29,421 bases of DNA from an archaeon (GTDB lineage Archaea; Iainarchaeota; Iainarchaeia; Iainarchaeales; CSSED10-239): positions 1 through 29,421 of the forward strand of contig JBAYPN010000009.1 of the NCBI GenBank assembly GCA_041677685.1, read 5' to 3'. The position numbers and the translations under genes were made by a program. Under the pieces are notes generated by a model that worked only from the letters and a program-made list of their open reading frames with translations, was not told the origin of the DNA and did no database searches. Of this stretch, positions 4,090 through 28,057 are shown in pieces (positions within the stretch are counted from its first letter, which is position 1; each line of letters opens with the position of its first letter).

Positions 4090-4830
4090 ATGGGATTAAG
4101 ACCAGGCCGTTGTTACAATAAGAATGTAAAGAAAAGAGCTTATACAAGAGTTGCAAAAAAAGTGCATAGAAAAAACTATGTTGGTGGAATACCAGGTCTA
4201 AAGATCAGACAGTTCCATATGGGTTTTGGAGACAGAAGCTATACTCATGTTGTTCATTATGCTGTTACAGAAAAGATACAGATTAGAGATAATGCTTTAG
4301 AGTCTGCGAGAACAACTATTGTAAGACAATTAAATAAAAAATTAACTGCTCAAAATTTCTATATGAAATTAAGAGTTTATCCACAATTTTTCTTAAGAGA
4401 AAATAAACAAGCACAAGGTGCACATGCCGACAGAATACAGCAAGGTATGAGTTCATGTCCTTTTGGAAAAGTTGTTGGTGCTGCATCAAGAGTAAGACCT
4501 AATCAAAAGATATTTAGTATACTTGTTGATGAGCAAAATATTCCAGTTGTTAAAGAAAGCTTAAACAAAGTGAATGCTAAGTTTCCTACAAAAATGAAAA
4601 TTATAATTGAAGAAAATAAAGATTCATTAAAGTCTGTTGGAACAACAAAGAAGAGAAGAAAATTATTAAAGGCAGCTGAAGAAGAAACAAAAGCAGCAGA
4701 AGCTACAAAGGCAGCGTTAAAAGATGCTAAAAAAACTGTTGAGAAGAAAGATTCAAAAGCTTCAACAGGAAAAGATGCTGGTGGTAAGAAAGATGCTGGT
4801 GCTAAGAAGGATGATAAGAAAAAGAAGTAA
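4090..4830 (+). CDS. rpl10e: 50S ribosomal protein uL16 (L10e) with a Lys/Ala-rich C-terminal extension
   Basis: The N-terminus MGLRPGRCYNK...YTRVAKK...GGIPGLKIRQFHMG is the archaeal/eukaryotic L10e signature. SD aaaggtga lies 7 nt upstream. At 246 aa it exceeds the roughly 170-180 aa typical for archaeal L10e. Confidence 0.95.
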   Translation: MGLRPGRCYNKNVKKRAYTRVAKKVHRKNYVGGIPGLKIRQFHMGFGDRSYTHVVHYAVTEKIQIRDNALESARTTIVRQLNKKLTAQNFYMKLRVYPQFFLRENKQAQGAHADRIQQGMSSCPFGKVVGAASRVRPNQKIFSILVDEQNIPVVKESLNKVNAKFPTKMKIIIEENKDSLKSVGTTKKRRKLLKAAEEETKAAEATKAALKDAKKTVEKKDSKASTGKDAGGKKDAGAKKDDKKKK

Positions 4831-6079: not shown

Positions 6080-6541
6080 ATGGAGAGAAGTTTAATTATT
6101 TTTAAACCAGATTCTTTAAATAGAGCTTTGGTTGGAGAAATTTTACATAGGTTTGAAAGAAAGGGGCTAAAGATTATTGGAATGAAGATGACTTACTTAG
6201 ATGATGATCTTTTAGGTCAACATTATTTTCATCTAAAAGACAAACCTTTCTTTCCAAGATTAAAAAGATTTATGCAAAGTGCACCTTCTATTGTAGCTGT
6301 TTTAGAAGGAAACAATGTTATTGAAGTTGTTAGAAATCTTGTAGGTGTTACAAGAGGTTATGAAGCACTTTCTGGAACTGTGAGAGGAGATTATTCTTTA
6401 TCAGGGCAGTGTAATGTTATTCATGCCTCAGATTCACCAGTAAATGCAGAACTAGAAATTTCTAGGTTTTTTAATCATGATGAATTATTTAATTATGAGA
6501 AGATTGATTTAGAATATATTTATGCAGAAGACGAATTATAA
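6080..6541 (+). CDS. ndk: Nucleoside diphosphate kinase
   Basis: ERSLIIFKPDS, RFERKGLKIIGMK, PFF, GTVRGDY, and the catalytic His context NVIHASDS. SD ggggtgga upstream. Confidence 0.95.
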   Translation: MERSLIIFKPDSLNRALVGEILHRFERKGLKIIGMKMTYLDDDLLGQHYFHLKDKPFFPRLKRFMQSAPSIVAVLEGNNVIEVVRNLVGVTRGYEALSGTVRGDYSLSGQCNVIHASDSPVNAELEISRFFNHDELFNYEKIDLEYIYAEDEL

Positions 6542-6642
6542 TTTTTTGTTTTTTTAATTTAATTTTTTTTAAAATAGATATATTTAAAAAGATTATAATA
6601 TAGTATATACAATGGTTTATTAAAAAAAAGGGGGAATAATTT

Positions 6643-7068
6643 ATGTTAAATTTATTAAATATAGGTGTGCAAGATTTTAGCATGGCTGCTCTTGGAGCAT
6701 TTATAGCTAGTATGGCAATATTCTTTTTGTTAATTGGAATTGCAATATATGTTTATTTTGCATTAACATTAAGTACAATTGCAAAAAAGTTAGGTTATGA
6801 ATATCATTGGCTAGCTTGGATTCCAGTTGCAAATTTGTTTTTGTATCCAATATTAGCTAAAAAACATTGGGCATTAGGTTTTTTGTTTTTAATTCCAATT
6901 GCAAATGTAGTTTTATATTTTGTTTGGAAGTGGCAAATTTATGAATTAAGAAATTATCCTGGTTGGTTAAGTCTGGTATTAATTTTAAGTATAGTCCCAT
7001 TATTAAACGTTTTAGCATTTATTGCTGAATTGGTAATTGTTGGACTTGTAGCTTGGAAAGATAGATAA
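6643..7068 (+). CDS. Small multi-pass membrane protein with three (I/V)P-x-x-N motifs (DUF5684-like by pattern)
   Basis: 141 aa with about 4 TM segments. Repeated WIPVANLFLY / LIPIANVVLY / IVPLLNVLAF motifs. SD aagggggaa upstream. Confidence 0.7.
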   Translation: MLNLLNIGVQDFSMAALGAFIASMAIFFLLIGIAIYVYFALTLSTIAKKLGYEYHWLAWIPVANLFLYPILAKKHWALGFLFLIPIANVVLYFVWKWQIYELRNYPGWLSLVLILSIVPLLNVLAFIAELVIVGLVAWKDR

Positions 7069-10100: not shown

Positions 10101-12179
10101 ATGTATATTAGAATTATGTTTTGGTTGCATAAGGTTGTGCTAAGGTTATTTATTTTAATATTTTTTATGTTTTGTTTAGTTCCTATATTGTATTCTTTGG
10201 ATTTTAATATTTCTAGTTTAGGTAATAACTTAGGTTTAGATTATGTAAACATTGATACTAACCAGGCAATTTTTAGAATTGATATTGATAGTGATTTTTA
10301 TCCATTTGATTTAAATTTAATTTCTTTAGATATTAATTCTTTTAATTTCTATGAAGACTTTTTACTTTTTAAGGACACAAATGTTAATGGTTTATTTGAT
10401 TCTAATGATTCTGTTTTAGATGTTAATTTAGTTTATTCTAACTTTTCAAATAATAATTATGATTTAAATATTATTTGCGATTTAGAAATTGATTCTAATC
10501 TTTCTTTTTTTGTGGTTGTTAATTTAAATTCAGGGGTTGGAAGTATAATTGATTTTAATGTTGTTGATGTTATTTCTTCTGTAGATGGAAATATTAATTA
10601 TTTAGATGATAGAGAATTTTTGATTGTGCCTAAACACATAGTTAATAGAGGAAATGTTTTTTATAATTCAGTGTTTTTAGATTATTATTCTTTTTCTGAT
10701 ATTAATGGAGATTATGTTTCTGATATTTATTCTTTAAATTCTGTTTTAGATTTTGATATTTTTAGTTTGTATATTGATGGGAATGATTATAGGGATTATA
10801 ATTTTGGTATTAGTGTTGGGGATTATAATAGAGAAGATCTTGGTCATTTATATTTTGATTTGGGGGAAGGTGTAATAAACATTTCAAATAATAATAATTT
10901 TAATATAGACTTTAATATTTTTAATTTTAATATAATTGATGATTATTATTATCTTGTGGATGGTAATAGTTTGTATATTTTTGATTATAATGTTGAGGTT
11001 TTTAATTACAATCTAATATCTTCTATAGATACAAATGATGTAATATATGCAGTAGACACTTATGATTATAATTTTCATTCATATTTATTTTTAGCAAATA
11101 ATAGTAATGGGATTGTGATATATGATATAACTGATGAGAATATTTTAGATGTTAATAATAATTATGTTGGAAATGTTGTTTATCCTGATTTTAATACCAC
11201 TTATTTAGAATCATTTAAGACACCTAGTGATTTGGACTATATGATAGTGTCTGTTTTAGGCTCTAAATTAGGTGGTCCTCTTTTTTATAAAATTGATGAT
11301 TTAATTGAATTGAATGGAGCTATTAACTCAAACCAGAAAAAATTTAGTAATTTAAGAAAGAATTTAATAGACACTTACTTTAATGACCTTGACAGAAACA
11401 CACTATCTGTAAGTTTTAAAAATAAAGAACAACATTTTAAAGTTGAATATGCTTATAACTTAGATGAACTCTATTTTACAGGAAATAGTGCTGATAAAGA
11501 AAAGTCCTACTCTTCCTTATTTAGATTAAATAATAGAATGTTTGCAATTAACTTTGATAGAAACCAAATTGACAGTTTTAATTATGATGATTTTTATGAT
11601 GTGACTTCTCCACTCCCAATCTCATCATATACACCTTCTCAAAGTATCTTTGCAATTACACCTTATAATGACACAAATAGAATGTTTGTTTTACTTGAAA
11701 ATAAAATAGAAGTTTTAGAGTATAATTTTTTAGATGATAATTTTTACTTAGATTATACCTTTGAAAACATTAATACTGATGTTTCAAATGTTTACCAAAA
11801 AATGAAATTTATAAACTACACATTATTTGTTGGACAAGCAAATAGCTTTTCATCATTTGATCTCAGATTTGATGATCTTAATTTCATCTCTTACTATTAT
11901 ATCCCACCCATAAAAACCTCTAATCTATTTTTATCAGAACATAATATTGATTACGAACTTTACAATAACATAAATTTTGATGGAAACATTAATCTTTATT
12001 TTAAACTATACGATTATAATATAGAAATAAACAACTCAACCTTTACACCCTACCCCTCAAACATCTACTTTAAAGATTCAGAAAATTCTTATACAATTAT
12101 TGATGATCTTTTACTTGCCCAACAATTTGCTATAGAACTACAAATAGAATCTATGATTGTCAATATACCTTTAATATAA
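10101..12179 (+). CDS. Large N/D/Y/F-rich secreted surface protein (N-terminal part of a probable split gene)
   Basis: 692 aa with an N-terminal hydrophobic signal/anchor (LFILIFFMFCLVPILYS) and many N-x-S/T sequons. It has no C-terminal anchor. Confidence 0.7.
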   Translation: MYIRIMFWLHKVVLRLFILIFFMFCLVPILYSLDFNISSLGNNLGLDYVNIDTNQAIFRIDIDSDFYPFDLNLISLDINSFNFYEDFLLFKDTNVNGLFDSNDSVLDVNLVYSNFSNNNYDLNIICDLEIDSNLSFFVVVNLNSGVGSIIDFNVVDVISSVDGNINYLDDREFLIVPKHIVNRGNVFYNSVFLDYYSFSDINGDYVSDIYSLNSVLDFDIFSLYIDGNDYRDYNFGISVGDYNREDLGHLYFDLGEGVINISNNNNFNIDFNIFNFNIIDDYYYLVDGNSLYIFDYNVEVFNYNLISSIDTNDVIYAVDTYDYNFHSYLFLANNSNGIVIYDITDENILDVNNNYVGNVVYPDFNTTYLESFKTPSDLDYMIVSVLGSKLGGPLFYKIDDLIELNGAINSNQKKFSNLRKNLIDTYFNDLDRNTLSVSFKNKEQHFKVEYAYNLDELYFTGNSADKEKSYSSLFRLNNRMFAINFDRNQIDSFNYDDFYDVTSPLPISSYTPSQSIFAITPYNDTNRMFVLLENKIEVLEYNFLDDNFYLDYTFENINTDVSNVYQKMKFINYTLFVGQANSFSSFDLRFDDLNFISYYYIPPIKTSNLFLSEHNIDYELYNNINFDGNINLYFKLYDYNIEINNSTFTPYPSNIYFKDSENSYTIIDDLLLAQQFAIELQIESMIVNIPLI

Positions 12180-13399: not shown

Positions 13400-13894
13400 T
13401 TAAGCAATAATCATTGGTTTTGGTTCCTTTTTTGCTGTTTCCTCTATAATTTTTTCTTTAACCAAATTTCTTGTAACATTTCTATCTTTTTCATTTATTC
13501 CAAAACTAAGGTCTTTTATAATCTTAAATCTAATTGTAACTTCTTTGTCTGCAAAGCCTTTAAGTAAAACTCCACTAATAACATGAATAGCATCTTTCTC
13601 TAAAGAAACATTTATGTCTCCAAAGTAGTCATTCTTCATCTTATTAAACTCACCAGAAACTTGTTTAATCTTTAAACTTTGATCAATTAGCCTTTGTCTA
13701 AGAGTTCCAGCTTTTGATACAGCCATTCTTGTGTTTTTAAGTCTTCCCTCTGCTGACAACAATACTGCCTTTTTAATATTTTGCTCTTTAAATGCTTGTT
13801 CTATGCTAGAGATTACTTCATCTTCATCATCTAATATTATAGTTAAGTAACTATCATTTTTACCTCTAATTTCGTGCATTCCACTTTGAATCAT
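13400..13894 (-). CDS. PPC (DUF296/PCC)-domain-like protein
   Basis: The layout matches the PPC domain: LTIILDDEDEVISSIEQAFKEQNIKKAVLLSAEGRL...VSGEF...GDINVSL...VISGVLLKG...VTIRFKI. Assigned by pattern only. Confidence 0.45.
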   Translation of the reverse strand: MIQSGMHEIRGKNDSYLTIILDDEDEVISSIEQAFKEQNIKKAVLLSAEGRLKNTRMAVSKAGTLRQRLIDQSLKIKQVSGEFNKMKNDYFGDINVSLEKDAIHVISGVLLKGFADKEVTIRFKIIKDLSFGINEKDRNVTRNLVKEKIIEETAKKEPKPMIIA

Positions 13895-16822: not shown

Positions 16823-16908
16823 TAATTTAAAATAGTAATATCTTAATTTAAAAATAGTAATATCTTAATTTAAAAATAGTAATATTTTAATTTAAAATAG
16901 TAGTATAT
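16823..16908. repeat. Four tandem 21-22 bp units taatttaaaa(a)tagtaatatct, each carrying a TATA-like box
   Basis: Units lie at 16823-16843, 16844-16865, 16866-16887 and 16888-16908. The last unit is degenerate. The array ends 15 nt before the ATG at 16924. Confidence 0.9.
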
Positions 16909-16923
16909 AATAGTTTGATATTT

Positions 16924-17907
16924 ATGGTTGATAGAGACATAATAAACTTTATAAAAAAAGAAAAAGAAAAAAATCTTTCTGAAAAAAAGATAAGAAAGGC
17001 TTTAATCAATGTTGGGTTTGAGAAGTCAGATGTAAAGTCAGCTTTTAAATATATTGAAGATGAACAAAAAACACTTAATAAATTAAAAAAAGATTTGTTA
17101 AACAATAAATTAGATTTGAAAAAAGAAGATTTGAAAAAAGAAGATTTAAAGAAAGAAGATTTGAAAAAAGAAGATTTAAAGAAAGATAAACAAGAAACAC
17201 TTGAAAAATTAAAGAAGGACTTTGAGAAAAGTAAAGTCTCTAAAAATAAAGCTTTTGTAAACAACTCTTCTAAAGAAAATGATTTAGATGATGATTTAGA
17301 TGATGATTTAGAGAATATAAGTTTTTTTACAGATGAATCTTTAATTAGTGATCCTATTAATAGTTCAAGTAAGAACAATTCTGATAACTTAAATAAAAAT
17401 TATTTTGACAATTCAAATAAGAATGACTTGAGTAGTTCAATTAAGAACAATAACTTATCAACTGATGATAAAAAGAAATCAAAAGATCAAAAATTTTGGG
17501 ACGATTATAAATTTGTACCTAAAAAGGAAAAACCAATTAATCCAGAATCATTTAATGTTAATTTTAAAGGAGCTGTTAAAAAAAATAAGTATAATTCTTA
17601 TAAATCTGTGATTATGGATAGTTCTGAAAAAGGGAGATCTTTAAGTTCTTTTCAAAAAATGTTTTTAGTTTTTGGTTTACTTCTCTTTTTAGCAATTATC
17701 TTTTTTTTCTTTATTCCAAATAACTTTTTTAGTTTACACAAAACAACATCTCAATTAAATGAAAAATACTTAGAAAAACAAAAAGAAGTAGTTGTTACAG
17801 ATTGTAATAGCTTAGATCAATATTCTTGTTATGCAAATCCAAAATGTGAAGTTGTTTATGACAGAACTGGTGGATATCTAACATATATTGAATGTAGGAG
17901 TACCTAG
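16924..17907 (+). CDS. Bitopic membrane protein with a charged low-complexity cytoplasmic region (KKEDL repeats), one TM and a small 4-Cys C-terminal ectodomain
   Basis: I take the ATG at 16924; the track start at 16915 is a TTG. The N-terminal helical module is INFIKKEKEKNLSEKKIRKALINVGFEKSDVKSAFKYI. It also has (KKEDL)x5, DLDDDLDDDL, the TM FLVFGLLLFLAIIFFFFI, and then C-x9-C-x5-C-x16-C. Its stop codon abuts the next gene's ATG. Confidence 0.7.
   Translation: MVDRDIINFIKKEKEKNLSEKKIRKALINVGFEKSDVKSAFKYIEDEQKTLNKLKKDLLNNKLDLKKEDLKKEDLKKEDLKKEDLKKDKQETLEKLKKDFEKSKVSKNKAFVNNSSKENDLDDDLDDDLENISFFTDESLISDPINSSSKNNSDNLNKNYFDNSNKNDLSSSIKNNNLSTDDKKKSKDQKFWDDYKFVPKKEKPINPESFNVNFKGAVKKNKYNSYKSVIMDSSEKGRSLSSFQKMFLVFGLLLFLAIIFFFFIPNNFFSLHKTTSQLNEKYLEKQKEVVVTDCNSLDQYSCYANPKCEVVYDRTGGYLTYIECRST
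17113..17187 (+). repeat. Five tandem 15-bp coding repeats (gatttgaaaaaagaa / gatttaaagaaagaa) encoding DLKKE
   Basis: Read directly from the sequence, inside the CDS 16924-17907. Confidence 0.9.
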
Positions 17908-20444: not shown

Positions 20445-22643
20445 ATGGGAAGAAAAGAACAAGTTGCCGAACTTGCAGAAAAGTTAATGGCGAATCAAAA
20501 AAATATTAGAAATATTGCAATTATTGCGCATATTGATCATGGGAAATCAACTCTAACAGATAATCTAGTTGCAACAGCAGGTCTAATTTCAAAGGACCTT
20601 GCTGGAGAACAGGTTTTTATGGACTCTTATGTTTTAGAACAAGAAAGAGGAATTACAATTAACTCCTCTAATGTTTCTGTGCCTTGTGATATTGATGGAG
20701 AAAAATTTTTAATTAATATTATTGATACTCCTGGACACGTTGATTTTACAGGAGATGTTATTAGGGCTATGAGGGCTGTTGATGGAGCAGTTTTAGTTGT
20801 TGATGCTGTTGAAGGAGTTATGCCACAAACAGAAACAGTTTTAAGACAGGCACTAAGAGAAAGAGTAAAGCCAGTATTGTTTATTAACAAAGTAGATAGA
20901 TTAATTACAGAGATGCATGTTACTCCTGAGGATATGCAACAAAAATTTATAAAAATTGTAATGGACATTAATAACCTGATTACAAAAAATGCACCTGACG
21001 AGTTTAGAAAAGAATGGCAAGTAAATATTGCTGATGGTTCTGTGTGTTTTGGAACTGGATTTCATAATTGGGCATTATCTGTTCCTGCTATGAAGAAATA
21101 TACAATAACTTTTAAAGATATTATTGAACTTGCAGAAAATGATAGACAAAAAGAACTTGGAGAAAGAATTCCAATTTCTGAAGTATTTTTAGAAATGGTT
21201 GCAAAGCATTTACCAAACCCAATTCAATCTCAAAAATACAGAATTCCTGTTATTTGGAAAGGAGATCCTGAAACTGCAGAAGGAAAAGCTATGCTTTCTT
21301 GTGATGCTCATTCTGATAAAGTTGCAATGATGGTTACAGATGTTGTTTTAGATAAACATGCTGGAGACATAGCTTCTGGAAGAATTTATTCAGGAGTTAT
21401 TAAGAAAGGAATGGAATTGAAAGTATTAGGTTCTGAAAAAATTGCAAAAGTTCAACAAGTTGGAATTTATTTAGGTCCTGAAAAAGTTTTGTTAGATGAA
21501 GTAAAAGCAGGAAATATTGCTGCAATTATTGGAATGAAAGAAGTTTATGCTGGACAAACAATTTCAAGTGTTGAGATGGAACCATTTGAAGACTTTATGA
21601 CAGATGTTGAACCTGTTATGACTGTTTCTATTGAGGCTAAAAATTCAAAAGACCTACCTAAGTTAATTGATGTTATTCATAATATTTCTAAGGAAGATCC
21701 AAACATTAAAGCTGAACTGAATCAAGATACAGGAGAACACTTAATCTCAGGTATGGGAGAATTACATTTAGAAATTACTCAATATAAAATTGAGAAAGAT
21801 AATAATATTCCAATTACAGTTTCACCTCCAATTGTAGTTTATTATGAAGCAATTACAAAAGCTTCTCCAGTTATTGAAGGAAAGACACCAAACAAACATA
21901 ATAAGTTTAAGATAACTGTTGAACCAATTGAAGCTGAAATTTTAGAAAATTTAAGAAAAGTAAAGCATAATGGAAAATTAAGACCAAACAAAGATTTAGA
22001 TATTGTAAAGAAATTACAAGAAGCTGGTTTCTCTATTGATGACTCTAAGAATGTTTGGGTAATTAATAATCATTCAGTTTTAATTAATAGGACTAAAGGG
22101 ATACAGAATTTAAATGAAGTTAGAGAATTAATTATTGAAGCATTTATTGATGCAACTAATGAAGGTCCTGTTGCTAAAGAAAAAGTTTCTGGAATTGTAG
22201 TTAGTTTGGAAGATGTTACTCTACACGAGGATGCAATACATAGAGGTCCTGCACAGGTTCTTCCTGCAATGACAAGAGCAATTTATGCTGGTGTTTTGTA
22301 TGGTGATTATATTTTACTTGAACCAAAACAAAAATTAACTGTTTCTGTTCCTCAAGATTTTATGGGAGCAGTTTCTAAAGTCTTGTCTTCAAGAAGAGCA
22401 CAAATTGAGGATATTAAGTCTGAGGGAGACTCAAGTATTTTTACAAGTAAGATTCCTGTAAAGTCTATGATTGGTTTTTCACAAGTAATGAGAGGAGATA
22501 CTCAAGGTAGAGCTGTATGGTCTGCTGAATATTATGGGTATGAGCCTTTACCAAAGAGTTTACAAAAAGATATAATTACAGAAATTAGAACAAGAAAGGG
22601 AATGGATCCTGAACCAAAATCAGCAGAATTTTTTATAGATTAG
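20445..22643 (+). CDS. fusA: Translation elongation factor 2 (aEF-2)
   Basis: G motifs AHIDHGKST, DTPGHVDF and NKVDR. Diphthamide-site motif LHEDAIHRGPAQ. 732 aa. SD aaaggtga 8 nt upstream. Confidence 0.97.
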   Translation: MGRKEQVAELAEKLMANQKNIRNIAIIAHIDHGKSTLTDNLVATAGLISKDLAGEQVFMDSYVLEQERGITINSSNVSVPCDIDGEKFLINIIDTPGHVDFTGDVIRAMRAVDGAVLVVDAVEGVMPQTETVLRQALRERVKPVLFINKVDRLITEMHVTPEDMQQKFIKIVMDINNLITKNAPDEFRKEWQVNIADGSVCFGTGFHNWALSVPAMKKYTITFKDIIELAENDRQKELGERIPISEVFLEMVAKHLPNPIQSQKYRIPVIWKGDPETAEGKAMLSCDAHSDKVAMMVTDVVLDKHAGDIASGRIYSGVIKKGMELKVLGSEKIAKVQQVGIYLGPEKVLLDEVKAGNIAAIIGMKEVYAGQTISSVEMEPFEDFMTDVEPVMTVSIEAKNSKDLPKLIDVIHNISKEDPNIKAELNQDTGEHLISGMGELHLEITQYKIEKDNNIPITVSPPIVVYYEAITKASPVIEGKTPNKHNKFKITVEPIEAEILENLRKVKHNGKLRPNKDLDIVKKLQEAGFSIDDSKNVWVINNHSVLINRTKGIQNLNEVRELIIEAFIDATNEGPVAKEKVSGIVVSLEDVTLHEDAIHRGPAQVLPAMTRAIYAGVLYGDYILLEPKQKLTVSVPQDFMGAVSKVLSSRRAQIEDIKSEGDSSIFTSKIPVKSMIGFSQVMRGDTQGRAVWSAEYYGYEPLPKSLQKDIITEIRTRKGMDPEPKSAEFFID

Positions 22644-22770
22644 AGTTTTAATTTGAAAACATTAAATGTTGGACACTTATTTTTTTAGTGTCAAACTCTT
22701 TTTATTTTTTTCTTTTTTTCTTTTTTTTTAATTTTCAATTTTTCTTTTTTTTTAATTGATTTTTTATTGT
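22642..22770 (+). terminator. Imperfect hairpin followed by long oligo-T tracts downstream of aEF-2
   Basis: Inverted repeats agagttt (22642-22648) / aaactct (22693-22699) and gacact (22672-22677) / agtgtc (22687-22692). Several T6-T10 runs follow. Archaeal termination at oligo-T is established. Function here is inferred. Confidence 0.5.
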
Positions 22771-22961
22771 CTTTCCTTAACACCTATCTTTTGTGACTAA
22801 TTAACATAGTCTGTTCATTATTTGTTGGACATTACATTCTTTCTTGGATTTTTAATTTTTTAAAAATCTATATGATTTATAAATGTTTATATTTACATTA
22901 ATAATATATAATTTTGTTATATCTGTATGTTTACAGAAATAAAATGGAGGGGAGAGATCTC

Positions 22962-23201
22962 ATGGTTGTTAAGAAAAAAGCACCAGTTAAAAAGGCTGTT
23001 GTTAAGAAAAAAGCACCAGTTAAAAAGGCTGTTGTTAAGAAAAAAGCACCAGTTAAAAAGGCTGTTGTTAAGAAAAAAGCACCAGTTAAAAAAGCTGTTG
23101 TTAAGAAAAAAGCACCAGTTAAAAAAGCTGTTGTTAAGAAAAAAGCACCAGTTAAAAAAGCTGTTGTTAAGAAAAAAGCACCAGTTAAAAAAAGAAGATA
23201 A
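22962..23201 (+). CDS. 79-aa lysine-rich repeat protein, M-(VVKKKAPVKKA)x6-VVKKKAPVKKRR
   Basis: ATG at 22962 lies 9 nt after ggagggg (22946-22952). An alternative ATG is at 22944. The whole ORF is seven 33-bp repeats. A terminator-like hairpin overlaps the stop codon. Confidence 0.7.
   Translation: MVVKKKAPVKKAVVKKKAPVKKAVVKKKAPVKKAVVKKKAPVKKAVVKKKAPVKKAVVKKKAPVKKAVVKKKAPVKKRR
22965..23195 (+). repeat. Seven tandem 33-bp repeats (gttgttaagaaaaaagcaccagttaaaaaRgct)
   Basis: Period 33 starting at 22965. Copies 1-3 carry aaaaaggct and copies 4-6 carry aaaaaagct. Copy 7 ends in aga aga taa. Confidence 0.95.
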
Positions 23202-23222
23202 TTTTTCTTCTTTTTTTTTATA
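23189..23222 (+). terminator. Hairpin plus T-tract
   Basis: aaaaagaag (23189-23197) pairs with cttcttttt (23207-23215) across a 9-nt loop, followed by a T run. Confidence 0.45.
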
Positions 23223-23280
23223 TTTTTTTATAAAATTTGAAAATCAATACTTTTAAAAATTCTTTAAGTCATATTATATT

Positions 23281-24412: not shown

Positions 24413-25192
24413 TTATAAGTCTTTATTATAAATTATTATATTTGAATTACTTTTTTCTTTTGCTTCTTCTAAAATTTCTGGATTATTATTTACATCTTTT
24501 AATGCATAGCTCGGGATGATATGTCCAAAGCAAAAAAGATTACTGTTCTTAAATGTTTTTTTATTAAACTTTGTGCAATAATGATTTCCTCCAATTCCAA
24601 TAGCTTCAACCCAGTTTCTTGTTTTTTTAATATCTTCTCTATTATAATTAATAAGAATATTAATTAATATTTGTATAATATAATTTGCAACATCTTTATT
24701 TTCCCAATCAGGATCACTTGAACCAATTTCTACAAACATTGTAGAGATATCAAGGTAAGGTCCATGATGGGTAGCTTCTTGTTTGACTTCATATTCTTTA
24801 ATCTTTGTAGGTTTATTTTTTTTAAGATTAAATAATAGTTCTCTAATTAAGATAGGGTCAGTTTTTACTAAAGTTTTATCTTTACCTCCAAGTTCAGCTT
24901 TTCCCCAATTACCAATTGAGTGAGCTGTTATTGTTTTTGTCTTAATTTCAGATAATGTAGAGTGTTTAGAAAGAACAATTATTTGATCAATTTGTAAACT
25001 TTTAGGAATCATTTCTTCTTCACTTGAATAGATATGTTGTTTTTCAATTTCTTTAAAATAGATATTGTTTATCCCATTTGATTTTAAAAAATAGAAATCT
25101 TCTTTTTGCTCTAAACTATAATTTTCAAAAAGTCTTTTTTTTAGATTAATGGAAGCTTTATCTTCCTTGCTTGAAATTATTAATATATTCAT
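24413..25192 (-). CDS. dtdA: D-aminoacyl-tRNA deacylase, archaeal type (DTD2)
   Basis: Signature motifs HSIGNWGKAELGG, EATHHGP, FVEIGSSDPDW, GIGGNHY and GHIIPSYAL. I take the ATG at 25192 (MNILIISSKEDKAS). The track start at 25207 is a TTG. Confidence 0.85.
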   Translation of the reverse strand: MNILIISSKEDKASINLKKRLFENYSLEQKEDFYFLKSNGINNIYFKEIEKQHIYSSEEEMIPKSLQIDQIIVLSKHSTLSEIKTKTITAHSIGNWGKAELGGKDKTLVKTDPILIRELLFNLKKNKPTKIKEYEVKQEATHHGPYLDISTMFVEIGSSDPDWENKDVANYIIQILINILINYNREDIKKTRNWVEAIGIGGNHYCTKFNKKTFKNSNLFCFGHIIPSYALKDVNNNPEILEEAKEKSNSNIIIYNKDL

Positions 25193-25482
25193 TTTTATTT
25201 TTTCCAATTTATATTTATGTTGTTTACAAATAATAGTATGTTAATAAAAAATATAAAAGTTGTGCTTTTGGATTAACTTATTTTTAAAAGACTTTATTAG
25301 TTATTAGAATATTTTTTTATATAGAATATACTTTTGTTATGTTTCGTTTTTTACTTTAAACTTTAAAAATTTAAAAAGGATCATTTGTCCTAAAGATAAG
25401 TATATAAATGTTTTTATGCAATAATTATTTATAGTCTACTTTTAAATTAATTGAAATAAAAAGTTATTATAAATTCTTATGT

Positions 25483-25900: not shown

Positions 25901-28057
25901 ATGAACCAATTTTTAAAAAAGATAATTGTAGTTACTTTGGTAGCTTTTGCATTTGTGTTTTTACTATCAATAATTACACCTAAAGTTTCTGCAACTGAAA
26001 TGACTCTAAATTCTGCTTTAGATATTCAATCAAATAGTAACAATGTCTTATTTGATGAAGTCTACCTTTATCTAGATAGTTTAGATAACTATGATGAATA
26101 TGTGATTGATTATATCTATTCTTCACAAGATGTAGTACTACATAATCAAGAACAATTTAGATTAAAAAGAATGGCAGAATTAATTAAACAAAACAAAGTT
26201 TCTGTAGATTTAAAAGTGTTAGACTCAAAACCTACAGGTAATGAATATAAATATAATAAATATAAATTAGAAACATTAGTAAGTTATAAAAGTAATTTCT
26301 CTGAAGAAGTAAGAACTGTAACAGAATATATAGTGGTTATTCCAAAAAATTCAGATGTTATAGAGGATAATTACTCTTATTTTTTTAGTTCTTCAAACTT
26401 TACAAATATTAATTCAGATTTAGAAGGTACTTTTTTTTCAACTGGAATTTTATTTAAAGATTTAATTAGAAATAATTTAAATAATGGTACTATCAAAAAA
26501 AATACAGAATATATTGTTTACGGTAAATTTGTAATCACTGATGAAGATGGAACTATTCAAGAAGTAGTTAGAACAAATGGGTATAATGTGATTTTTACAA
26601 ATAATGAAAACAATAGAATTTCAGAAAAGAATGCAAATCCAGGACACAATTTAAATGGATGGTATTTTGCACATTATGGAGAAATTGGATTTTCAAATGA
26701 TAGCAAAGGTTTAGTTTCAGCTCAAAAAGAAGGATTAATAACAATTGAAGACAAACCAATTTATTTAAATTTCTCTTATGAAGCTAAATTACCAAGCGCT
26801 ATTAAAGAATTACAATCAATGATTGTTGTAATGGCTATAGATGGAAGTGATTTTGCTGTATTTTACCCAACTCTAAATAAAGATAATGTAGTTTGTAAAG
26901 AAAATTTAAATGTAGATACAAAATTAAGAGATTGTAATTTTGAATACCAAATTCCAATTTATAGATCTTTTAAAAAAGGTGTAGAATATAGGGTTGGTTA
27001 TTCTATATTTCCAGCAACAGATAAACAAGTTATTTCTCAAGAAGAAGTAAATTCTGCAGAAGATGAATTGGTTCGTTATGGGGGTATTAAAGTTTATTTT
27101 GGAAACACACCTTACAATGGAAGAATAGACATGTACAATAAGCATATGGAGAAAAATTATAATCTTTTTAAAAATTTAAATCCAGAATATAATTCAAAAG
27201 TTGTAATTATAGATGATGTTTCAAGTACTGCTAATAGTGTGAACAATAATTCCTCAAATATAAACATTATAAATATATCTTCAAATGAGTGTCAAAATAA
27301 TACTGGTAAATTTAGGATGGAATGGTTTGGAAATAATCCAAATATGAGATACTATTTAAATGTGTATGATTTTAAAAATAATTTAGTTAGGATTAGCGTA
27401 GATGGGCAATCTACAGATTCTGTAAATTCAAGTAATAACTTATTAAATATAAATAAAAAGGAAGTTCTTGTTTCTTTAAATAATGTTGATTGTGATGATA
27501 CTTATTTTGCTGAAATAGAAGGGATTTCTCAACAACAAAAAAAAGTTAAATCAACTAAATATAATTTTAGGTTTAAAAATTCAAAAGTTGTAATTATAGA
27601 TGATATTTCAAGTACTGCTAATAGTGTGAACAATAATTCCTCAAATATTAAGCCTGGTACTTTTAGTAGCCAAAATAGAGCAAACGCAAGAGTAGTTGTT
27701 GATGCAGATGTTACTCAATTATCAAGTGATATGATTAATTTAAAGAAAAGATATGCAAAGTCAACAGTTCTGCCTATTAACCAATCTAAATTAACAGTGG
27801 TTGATTCTAAAGACAATTCTAAAGATGTATATATACAAAAAGAAAATCAAACAAGAAAATTAAAAGACATTTCAGAAGTTTTAAGGGAAGAAAGAATTTC
27901 TGTTGACAATATTTCATCGGACATATCAATTGTTGAAGTAGATGGAAGAACTAGTTATGTTTTTAGAACTACAGAGAAAAGAAGGTTATTTGGTATAATC
28001 CCAATTGGTAATAAAAATGTGTATAACGTTCTAAATGCAGTTGAAGACATAAAATAA
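25901..28057 (+). CDS. Large secreted protein, function unknown, with an internal pair of near-identical linker repeats
   Basis: 718 aa. SD aaggagtga. Sec-type signal peptide KKIIVVTLVAFAFVFLLSIITPKVSA/TE. No TM elsewhere. NSKVVIIDD(V/I)SSTANSVNNNSSNI occurs twice. Confidence 0.8.
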   Translation: MNQFLKKIIVVTLVAFAFVFLLSIITPKVSATEMTLNSALDIQSNSNNVLFDEVYLYLDSLDNYDEYVIDYIYSSQDVVLHNQEQFRLKRMAELIKQNKVSVDLKVLDSKPTGNEYKYNKYKLETLVSYKSNFSEEVRTVTEYIVVIPKNSDVIEDNYSYFFSSSNFTNINSDLEGTFFSTGILFKDLIRNNLNNGTIKKNTEYIVYGKFVITDEDGTIQEVVRTNGYNVIFTNNENNRISEKNANPGHNLNGWYFAHYGEIGFSNDSKGLVSAQKEGLITIEDKPIYLNFSYEAKLPSAIKELQSMIVVMAIDGSDFAVFYPTLNKDNVVCKENLNVDTKLRDCNFEYQIPIYRSFKKGVEYRVGYSIFPATDKQVISQEEVNSAEDELVRYGGIKVYFGNTPYNGRIDMYNKHMEKNYNLFKNLNPEYNSKVVIIDDVSSTANSVNNNSSNINIINISSNECQNNTGKFRMEWFGNNPNMRYYLNVYDFKNNLVRISVDGQSTDSVNSSNNLLNINKKEVLVSLNNVDCDDTYFAEIEGISQQQKKVKSTKYNFRFKNSKVVIIDDISSTANSVNNNSSNIKPGTFSSQNRANARVVVDADVTQLSSDMINLKKRYAKSTVLPINQSKLTVVDSKDNSKDVYIQKENQTRKLKDISEVLREERISVDNISSDISIVEVDGRTSYVFRTTEKRRLFGIIPIGNKNVYNVLNAVEDIK
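27191..27261 (+). repeat. 71-bp direct repeat, copy 1
   Basis: aattcaaaagttgtaattatagatgatgtttcaagtactgctaatagtgtgaacaataattcctcaaatat. It matches copy 2 at 70 of 71 positions. Confidence 0.95.
27578..27648 (+). repeat. 71-bp direct repeat, copy 2
   Basis: Same sequence as copy 1 with one G-to-A difference (gatgatAtt). The offset is 387 bp (129 codons), so it is in frame. Confidence 0.95.

Follow-up and report, generated by a model that had tools for sequence, protein, structure and literature searches.

A small gene encoding an extremely lysine-rich protein lies next to the gene for archaeal elongation factor 2 (EF-2) in a 29,421-nucleotide stretch of archaeal DNA (contig JBAYPN010000009.1 of assembly GCA_041677685.1; below, "the window" means this whole stretch), and this gene is conserved in the Forterrea-like clade of Iainarchaeota, a DPANN lineage. 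The gene consists of an ATG at 22962, seven tandem 33-bp units and a TAA at 23199–23201, and its product is, on balance, probably an abundant disordered polycation that binds and compacts the nucleoid of an AT-rich genome. The window, with a GC content of 24% outside its 23S rRNA part, was placed in Iainarchaeota (Diapherotrites, DPANN) by comparison of its EF-2 with those of GTDB genomes, where the nearest relatives are metagenome-assembled genomes (MAGs) named Ca. Iainarchaeum (86–87% EF-2 identity) and where the complete genome of Ca. Forterrea multitransposorum (CP045477.1; locus L009) has an EF-2 identity of 85%.

The tandem units start at 22965, 22998, 23031, 23064, 23097, 23130 and 23163 and outrank all other tandem repeats of the window by a wide margin in Tandem Repeats Finder (TRF; period 33, 6.9 copies, 99% matches, score 435, 22965–23192). 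Units 1–3 end in AAG GCT and units 4–6 in AAA GCT, the G/A difference being synonymous for lysine, and unit 7 runs out as AAA AGA AGA TAA, giving the translation M(VVKKKAPVKKA)6VVKKKAPVKKRR. Direct reading and TRF thus agree with a first-pass annotation made from the sequence alone, which had described an ATG, seven 33-bp units and a stop, with one synonymous A/G separating copies 1–3 from copies 4–6; its figure of about 55% lysine was wrong, as the count is 35 of 79 residues (44%), or 47% for lysine and arginine together. The remaining residues are valine (27%), alanine and proline, acidic, aromatic and polar residues are absent, and the protein of 8.6 kDa has a net charge of +37 and an isoelectric point of 12.0. 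Neither a domain-forming non-repeat segment nor a hydrophobic stretch or signal sequence was found in the 79 residues, the repeat beginning directly at MVVKKK and KK interruptions occurring throughout. AlphaFold, run on the single sequence, predicted one long helix (pLDDT 75, pTM 0.28), which is discounted as evidence of a helix because of the proline every 8–11 residues and the single-sequence input, and which would rather indicate the absence of a globular fold. An amphipathic 11-mer helix of the apolipoprotein, synuclein or LEA-like kind was also considered and rejected, because lysines lie all round the helical wheel, giving a low hydrophobic moment, and because the orthologues do not share one unit length.

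A Lys-rich small open reading frame (ORF) occurs directly downstream of EF-2 in every relative with an EF-2 identity of at least 76%, and the order EF-2 > Lys-rich ORF > DXR-like < DtdA is kept in all eight loci that reach downstream (the window, L028, L007, L008, L009, L010, L024, and L027), L009 being the curated complete genome of Ca. Forterrea multitransposorum. Eight orthologues, 34–79 residues long, are composed entirely of M, K, R, A, V, P, and rare T, without any D or E, with K+R contents of 44–47% and net charges of +16 to +37, and the DXR-like neighbor has meanwhile diverged to 33–50% identity. The N-terminus (MVVKKK or MAVKKK) and the ATG at 22962 are conserved, all length differences between orthologues are multiples of 3, and the unit length differs between them (11, 10, or 9+8 residues). 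The GC content by codon position follows a coding pattern in the window (GC1 0.51 > GC2 0.28 > GC3 0.14) and in each orthologue (about 0.5, 0.3, and 0.1), and the GC content of the ORF is 31% vs. 20% and 10% in the flanking intergenic DNA. Judging by these comparisons, selection appears to keep the composition and the pattern [V/A]2-K2-3-(A)P[A/V]-K2, not a particular sequence, unit length or protein length. In L008, the inner units have their own synonymous codons (GCT, GTG) and the last unit retains the codons of the window, the pattern expected of concerted evolution in which purifying selection acts on the peptide. Between L009 and L024 there are three synonymous changes, one replacement of V by A, and a 3-nt indel that preserves the frame and lies next to a replacement of K by A.

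Because the start is conserved and only the Lys-rich frame is open in all orthologues, the gene, its start and its frame are confirmed, as the proposal of a free-standing coding gene had it. The overlapping +1 frame (22927–23256), which had been named as a possible conserved alternative, was rejected since it contains stop codons in every orthologue, and a TTG at 22914 and an in-frame ATG at 22944 (chosen by the gene caller, with a product of 85 residues) were rejected as starts, neither being conserved. The search of related genomes for similar ORFs, also suggested in the first pass, located them at the EF-2-linked locus, L008 having an identical unit.

The array is unstable, and its copy number was followed in 16 contigs or scaffolds from the same population (units coded as G for G-type, A for A-type and T for the terminal variant). 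Three of them span the array, reading GGGAAAT in the window and in L030 (ERZ27247346) and GGAAAT in L003; scaffolds L001, L002, and L004/L029 carry a 100-N gap inside it, at least nine of the 16 end in the array or at its edge, and the exact 85-residue (seven-unit) product is present on two contigs only. The gap in L002 is flanked by GGGA… and …GGAAAT, which could overlap in a seven-unit array, so that the gaps are no proof of more copies; L001 and L004 require at least four A-type units. Either the population is polymorphic in unit number (6, 7, or more) or the array is simply beyond what 150-bp reads can resolve, and the copy number of seven is an assembler-limited, insecure estimate. The probable copy-number variability that had been noted at the outset is thus seen as six vs. 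seven units, N-gaps and contig breaks. Contigs L011 and L012 stop inside the start of the Lys-rich ORF, and the gene therefore breaks assemblies of other species too. The close relative L028 (89% identity in the DXR-like protein) has an identical Shine–Dalgarno (SD)–start region and a degenerate version of the array, from which it follows that the perfect array is the outcome of recent homogenization and expansion of an older Lys-rich gene, in support of the recent expansion or concerted evolution already suspected; the perfect 33-bp array is lineage-specific.

The gene is also accompanied by a conserved regulatory architecture (coordinates in Table 1). Its SD-like site, GGAGGGG, is the longest among the 27 ORFs of the window, a subset of which have such sites (uL16, NDK, EF-2 and the ORFs that begin at 6643 and 25901, plus a few weaker sites matching over 4 nt), and GGAGG(G) occupies the equivalent position in all orthologues, confirming the strong SD of the first-pass annotation. 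A leader hairpin is predicted at the equivalent place in eight of eight orthologues folded individually (z from −1.6 to −3.7), with stems varying between CUGUA/UACAG, CUGCA/UGCAG, CUGC/GCAG, and UUCUU/AAGAA; RNAalifold gave no consensus structure for a MAFFT alignment of the leaders because MAFFT left the short hairpins out of register, and the predictions are suggestive of a conserved leader hairpin with short stems. Upstream of it, the block TTTATAAATGTTTA is invariant at 12 of 14 positions over nine orthologous upstream regions, has one exact match in the whole window and would presumably act as the promoter; it is followed by a second A/T block, then by the short stem-loop and then by GGAGG. 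Still further upstream, the core TTGGACA recurs at −129 to −151 in nine of 10 orthologous loci, and L010 and L027 have three copies at a spacing of about 21 nt, like a regulator-binding array, so this element may be a regulator site. The 16-mer CATTATTTGTTGGACA has four matches in the window with up to three mismatches, vs. 0.71 expected. The sites at 22816–22831, 22660–22675, and 11821–11836 comprise two exact occurrences, one of them within the ORF at 10101–12179, and one with two mismatches.

At the 3′ end, T-runs follow the stop codon in all orthologues, and together with the 3′ hairpin (23187–23217; −10.5 kcal/mol, z = −4.5) they are the probable end of transcription, termination at oligo-T being established in archaea; the hairpin itself may be a by-product of Lys codons abutting oligo-T. 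The stop codon had been described as lying in a terminator-like hairpin, which stands as far as its position in the loop and the T-runs are concerned, and is not called by a bacterial-type terminator scanner, which found no terminator at all and is uninformative for an archaeon; this terminator and promoter scan was set aside for that reason. Since a hairpin and a T/C tract lie between EF-2 and the small gene, the latter would form its own transcription unit. L028 also conserves the region upstream of the small gene, and in L012, where a DNA methyltransferase-like gene (6386–7052) is inserted between EF-2 and the Lys-rich gene, the whole upstream region stays with the latter. These features suggest that the gene is an independently transcribed unit under regulation, probably with strong expression.

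In a Pfam scan at E ≤ 0.001, the 79-residue protein matches no family, and no winged-helix domain of linker histone H1/H5 (PF00538) was found. The weak, sub-threshold Pfam and NCBIfam matches that recur at E ≤ 10 are all to H1-like DNA-binding families: PF07382 (HC2) scores 11 bits for the window (E 0.47), 35.4 for L009 and 13.4 for L007, with a gathering threshold of 40 and no match in L027 and L028; NF038053 (H1-like, Burkholderia type; cut-off 80) scores 19.7 for the window, 33.7 for L009, 34.7 for L024 and 6.5 for L027; NF038052 (Hc2; cut-off 135) scores 21.7–23.9; and NF050153 (the Rv3852 family; cut-off 100) scores 10.6–36.7. Among NCBIfam families, NF038053 ranks first for the window protein and two of four orthologues tested, the Rv3852 family being slightly above it in L024 and L028 matching no NCBIfam family. 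The recurrence of HC2, Burkholderia H1-like and Rv3852 matches upholds the likeness in composition to H1-type proteins that had been pointed out before, and since every score is below its cut-off, the protein is not a demonstrable member of any of these families and the resemblance is compositional. No ribosomal-protein family was matched in Pfam or NCBIfam even at E ≤ 10, and a sequence search of the PDB returned nothing meaningful, only a designed repeat protein at E 1.4.

Larger searches (phmmer and hmmsearch on a set of 5.8 billion proteins, and a full HMMER scan of 1.84 billion representatives) recovered no orthologues and returned just Lys-rich tails on unrelated folded domains; they also missed the window's own 85-residue called product, which is present in the collection, and the absence of free-standing matches is therefore uninformative, so that the frequency of tail-only proteins cannot be read from them. 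Exact look-up of the 79-, 95-, and 109-residue versions and of eight orthologue sequences found none on record, and an exact 33-mer scan of GTDB genomes gave no match. The module (A/V)KKAP(A/V)KK was found as tails on L30p, SWIB, tautomerase, DUF2934, and many larger proteins and is a polyanion-binding module in wide, probably convergent use.

Several known proteins share parts of this design. Chlamydial Hc2 (hctB; PF07382, NF038052), the best Pfam match of the orthologues, is likewise Lys/Ala-rich, made nearly entirely of short tandem repeats and a DNA-condensing polycation without a globular domain (binding by the archaeal protein being presumed), and its repeat number varies between strains through duplication and deletion (PMC2848022). 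Hc2 differs in being bacterial, in its length (165–237 vs. 34–79 residues) and in its Ala/Arg/Thr-rich pentamers within 36-residue elements, whereas the Lys-rich protein uses valine and proline, and the relationship, if there is any, is one of convergent composition and not of demonstrable homology. The H1-like proteins of Burkholderia and Bordetella (BpH1 type, NF038053), mentioned as Hc2-like in the same study (PMC2848022), are free-standing too and dominated by (A/P/V)AKKA-type repeats, but are about 195 residues long, Ala-rich and bacterial. The KPAA tails of AlgP and PhaF in Pseudomonas are also Lys/Pro/Ala tandem-repeat polycations, and the AlgP tail binds DNA in vitro and has a repeat number that is a mutational hot spot (PMC9239181); their unit has four residues, however, and the tail is attached to a folded N-terminal domain with a polyphosphate or polyhydroxyalkanoate granule function, and neither such a domain nor a KPAA unit is present in the archaeal protein. 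Tails on HupB, Rv3852, L30p, SWIB, tautomerase, and DUF2934 contain four to eight copies of (A/V)KKAP(A/V)KK(A/V)V, each time appended to a folded domain, whereas the Lys-rich protein is the module alone. The C-terminal domain of eukaryotic H1, which neutralizes linker DNA beside histone-wrapped DNA, has about 40% lysine with alanine and proline, is disordered and lacks acidic residues; H1 also possesses a winged-helix globular domain and S/TPKK motifs, and the Lys-rich protein has neither, with valine replacing serine and threonine.

A tail of another kind is found in the window itself, where uL16/L10e (4090–4830) is extended at its C-terminus by about 70 residues in which K, A, D, E, T, and G are abundant, including an 18-bp repeat at 4771–4813 (KDAGGK/KDAGAK). 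The earlier claim that the Lys-rich protein matches this tail fails, BLASTP giving no alignment at E ≤ 100, and kinship was rejected; the uL16 tail is of mixed charge (K/A/D/E/T/G) and lacks proline. In related Iainarchaeota, a protein of 419–441 residues (L013 956–2215, L014 132–1391, L019 806–2131), whose conserved motifs suggest an RNA polymerase subunit, begins with a Lys/Ala/Pro-rich tail, and a 170-residue protein (L027 429–941) ends in a Lys-rich one; the nucleic-acid machinery of this phylum seems commonly to bear basic tails.

The coordinates of the gene, its signals and its neighbors, together with the orthologues, are collected in Table 1.

Table 1. The Lys-rich gene, surrounding features in the window and orthologous proteins (aa, amino acids)
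Feature	Position	Strand	Remarks
Polycationic protein coding sequence, 79 aa	22962–23201	+	conserved start, syntenic orthologues
Seven tandem 33-bp units: G-type ×3, A-type ×3, terminal variant	22965–23195	+	
SD-like GGAGGGG	22946–22952	+	9 nt before ATG
Leader stem-loop (predicted), core CUGUA-UGUU-UACAG	22917–22942	+	just upstream of SD; −7.4 kcal/mol, z = −3.5
Promoter-like block TTTATAAATGTTTA, candidate archaeal TATA/B recognition element	22876–22889	+	about 73–86 nt upstream of ATG
Upstream element CATTATTTGTTGGACA	22816–22831	+	core TTGGACA about 130–140 nt before ATG
12-bp A/U-rich hairpin and T-runs	23187–23232	+	stop codon in loop
EF-2 3′ hairpin GTTGGACAC..GTGTCAAAC	22668–22696	+	conserved in L028
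55-nt T/C tract	22699–22753	+	after EF-2 3′ hairpin
Archaeal EF-2	20445–22643		upstream neighbor of Lys-rich ORF
DXR-like protein, 376 aa	23281–24411		between Lys-rich ORF and DtdA
D-aminoacyl-tRNA deacylase (DtdA), archaeal	24413–25207	−	
L007 orthologue			42 aa
L008 orthologue			56 aa; identical VVKKKAPVKKA unit ×5
L009 (Forterrea) orthologue			79 aa; imperfect repeats
L024 orthologue			78 aa
L027 orthologue			74 aa; unit VVKKAPAKKVVKKPVKK
L010 orthologue			34 aa
L028 orthologue			72 aa; degenerate repeats
L011 and L012 orthologues			starts only, truncated by contig ends

A nucleic-acid-binding polycation is favored because of the extreme charge, the KK(K) clusters with small or proline spacers, the lack of a fold, the variable valency and the strong translation signal, and the protein has the features of the functional class of H1-like DNA-binding proteins (at least about 40% basic residues, Ala/Pro spacers, almost no acidic residues and short tandem repeats). 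The known Lys-rich repeat proteins Hc2 and AlgP are DNA-binding and vary in repeat number (PMC2848022; PMC9239181). A separately transcribed gene would thus provide a tail-only, intrinsically disordered polycation with about 45% lysine, which would bind nucleic acid non-specifically by electrostatic attraction, neutralize its charge and condense the nucleoid in the manner of the H1 C-tail or Hc2, possibly alongside archaeal histones. Slippage or unequal recombination would homogenize and expand the 33-bp array, and the length of the protein, and hence its valency, would drift between strains. Several observations weigh against this reading: the similarity to H1-like proteins is a low-complexity resemblance below each curated cut-off; the AlphaFold helix (pLDDT 75) does not by itself demonstrate disorder; equal binding to RNA, ribosomes or polyphosphate is expected from the composition; the neighbors EF-2, DXR-like and DtdA offer no chromatin clue; the valine content of 27% is atypical, H1-like tails being Ala-rich; and no Lys-rich gene lies beside EF-2 in Iainarchaeota at about 60% EF-2 identity, so that the gene is either clade-restricted or has moved. 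A more specific and distinctly tentative proposal is that the Forterrea clade uses a tail-only analogue of linker histone, which would compact histone-bound, AT-rich DNA in ultra-small cells, with its charge dosage tuned by gain and loss of repeats and its expression controlled via TTGGACA and the leader hairpin; a linker-histone-like role is conceivable because Diapherotrites/Iainarchaeota are listed as histone-encoding (PMC6136690).

The protein could instead be an RNA- or ribosome-associated polycation, a stand-alone counterpart of the Lys-rich extensions of ribosomal proteins that would serve as a neutralizer of rRNA charge, an assembly factor or an RNA chaperone and not act on DNA, which is possible although rather unlikely. 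Several bacteria have the repeat module attached to L30p (P0001, P0005, P0024, and P0032), the window's uL16 bears a long Lys-rich C-terminal extension, RpoA″ and the 170-residue protein have Lys-rich tails in related Iainarchaeota, the gene constantly lies right after EF-2, and its SD, the strongest of the window, would fit the expression class of the translation apparatus. However, the hairpin, the long T-tracts and its own conserved promoter region separate the gene from EF-2, another gene intervenes in L012, no ribosomal-protein family is matched, the uL16 tail is not alignable, and a length spread of 34–79 residues is unusual for a stoichiometric ribosomal component. A scaffold for another polyanion or condensate, in polyphosphate organization or complex coacervation, is improbable: the Lys/Pro/Ala tail of AlgP localizes to polyphosphate granules and controls their spacing (PMC9239181), and the Lys-rich protein is a pure multivalent polycation of variable valency, but AlgP has a folded N-terminal domain and binds DNA, the Lys-rich protein is without a second tethering domain, and no gene of the window points to polyphosphate metabolism.

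That the ORF is functionless or near-neutral and merely arises from A-rich DNA, or that the array itself is a selected DNA element, is very improbable. AT-rich DNA easily gives Lys-rich ORFs, as has been argued for histone tails (PMC10919886), length and sequence are highly plastic between species, and both minus-strand frames are also stop-free as a by-product; yet the AT-favored residues N, I, F, Y, and L are absent throughout, codons with G or C (for Ala, Pro, and Val) are over-represented, every orthologue shows GC1 > GC2 > GC3, conservation extends to the start, SD, promoter block and upstream element, the units of L008 and the window differ only synonymously, and the ORF stays intact while the neighboring protein has dropped to 33% identity. 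The cell-surface or antimicrobial-like role that the first pass had kept in play would involve an exported cationic peptide acting against host or competitor surfaces or penetrating cells, in line with a symbiotic DPANN lifestyle, and is most unlikely, even though the positive charge is as extreme as in polycationic membrane-active peptides and DPANN archaea are often episymbionts (PMC5905446): the protein lacks a signal peptide as well as any hydrophobic or amphipathic segment, its low hydrophobic moment is not conserved from one orthologue to another, unit lengths of 11, 10, or 9+8 residues leave no conserved helical amphipathicity, and no export gene is linked. As for the whole feature being an assembly artefact, three of 16 contigs span the array, three to four scaffolds have 100-N gaps and at least nine contigs end there, which makes an artefact likely for the exact copy number; for the gene itself it is scarcely credible, given that the SD–ATG–unit 1 and terminal unit–stop–T-run junctions recur in many independent NCBI, ENA, JGI, and Logan assemblies and that non-repetitive orthologues exist, including the curated complete genome L009. 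The copy number alone is doubtful, not the gene.

The remainder of the window contains a 3′ fragment of archaeal 23S rRNA (1–1019), type IV pilus/type II secretion system (T2SS)-like genes and the archaeal uL16/L10e, and neighboring genes have identical copies in the NCBI MAGs GCA_028708135.1, GCA_028702685.1, GCA_028690785.1, and GCA_028685115.1 and in ENA, JGI, and Logan contigs. The DXR-like protein, syntenic across the clade (L007–L010, L024, L027, and L028), has as its sole match the N-terminal NAD(P)-binding domain of DXP reductoisomerase (PF02670, E 3.9e-13); such a gene is unexpected in archaea, where the mevalonate route is normal, and it is apparently without an SD and may be leaderless. 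An ORF of 718 codons (25901–28057) is intact in the window, L003, and L004 but split into two gene calls in two MAGs from this population (L001 12621–14489, 439+149 residues, and L002 12621–15004, 453+306 residues), owing either to a frameshift/indel polymorphism or to an assembly error. A 22-bp tandem repeat (3.9 copies, 16823–16906) lies upstream of and reaches into the start of a 330-residue ORF (16915–17907), which itself contains the repeats (EDLKK)5 (17112–17186) and (DDL)n (17279–17312) and lies within a T2SSE/T2SSF (archaeal pilus-like) gene cluster. A 164-residue protein on the minus strand (13400–13894) has a PCC/PPC (DUF296) domain (PF03479); in plants, such domains are fused to AT-hook DNA-binding motifs, a connection that may be relevant to an AT-rich genome. 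In L013, L014, L016, and L019, which are more distant Iainarchaeota, the EF-2 match spans about 2770–2794 nt vs. 2196 nt; this excess of about 190 residues suggests an insertion, possibly an intein.

Surveys of archaeal chromatin name folded families such as histones, Alba, MC1, Cren7/Sul7, and HU, and a literature search turned up no description, for DPANN or other archaea, of a Lys-rich protein that resembles an H1 tail and stands alone. H1-like proteins built of Lys-rich repeats in variable number are familiar from bacteria; what appears to be new here is a protein that is archaeal, tail-only, very short and Val-rich and that has a conserved regulatory architecture. Trypsin would cut such a Lys-rich protein into fragments of at most four residues, and proteins of this kind are likely under-counted because HMMER misses them, their tryptic fragments are tiny and short-read assemblies break at their genes; users of the genome should not trust the copy number of seven in this assembly. 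If the protein does coat DNA, it would represent a class of chromatin protein that hidden Markov model searches, with their bias filters, do not return and that is expected to escape tryptic proteomics. The origin of H1 is thought to be bacterial, not archaeal (Kasinsky 2001, cited in PMC10919886 and PMC9239181), and a DNA-coating role of the Lys-rich protein would touch on the idea of H1-like tails as a bacterial invention. It would also add a polycation-only component to the chromatin of histone-bearing, genome-reduced archaea, and if the tentative linker-histone analogy were true, archaea would have evolved a counterpart of the H1 tail independently.

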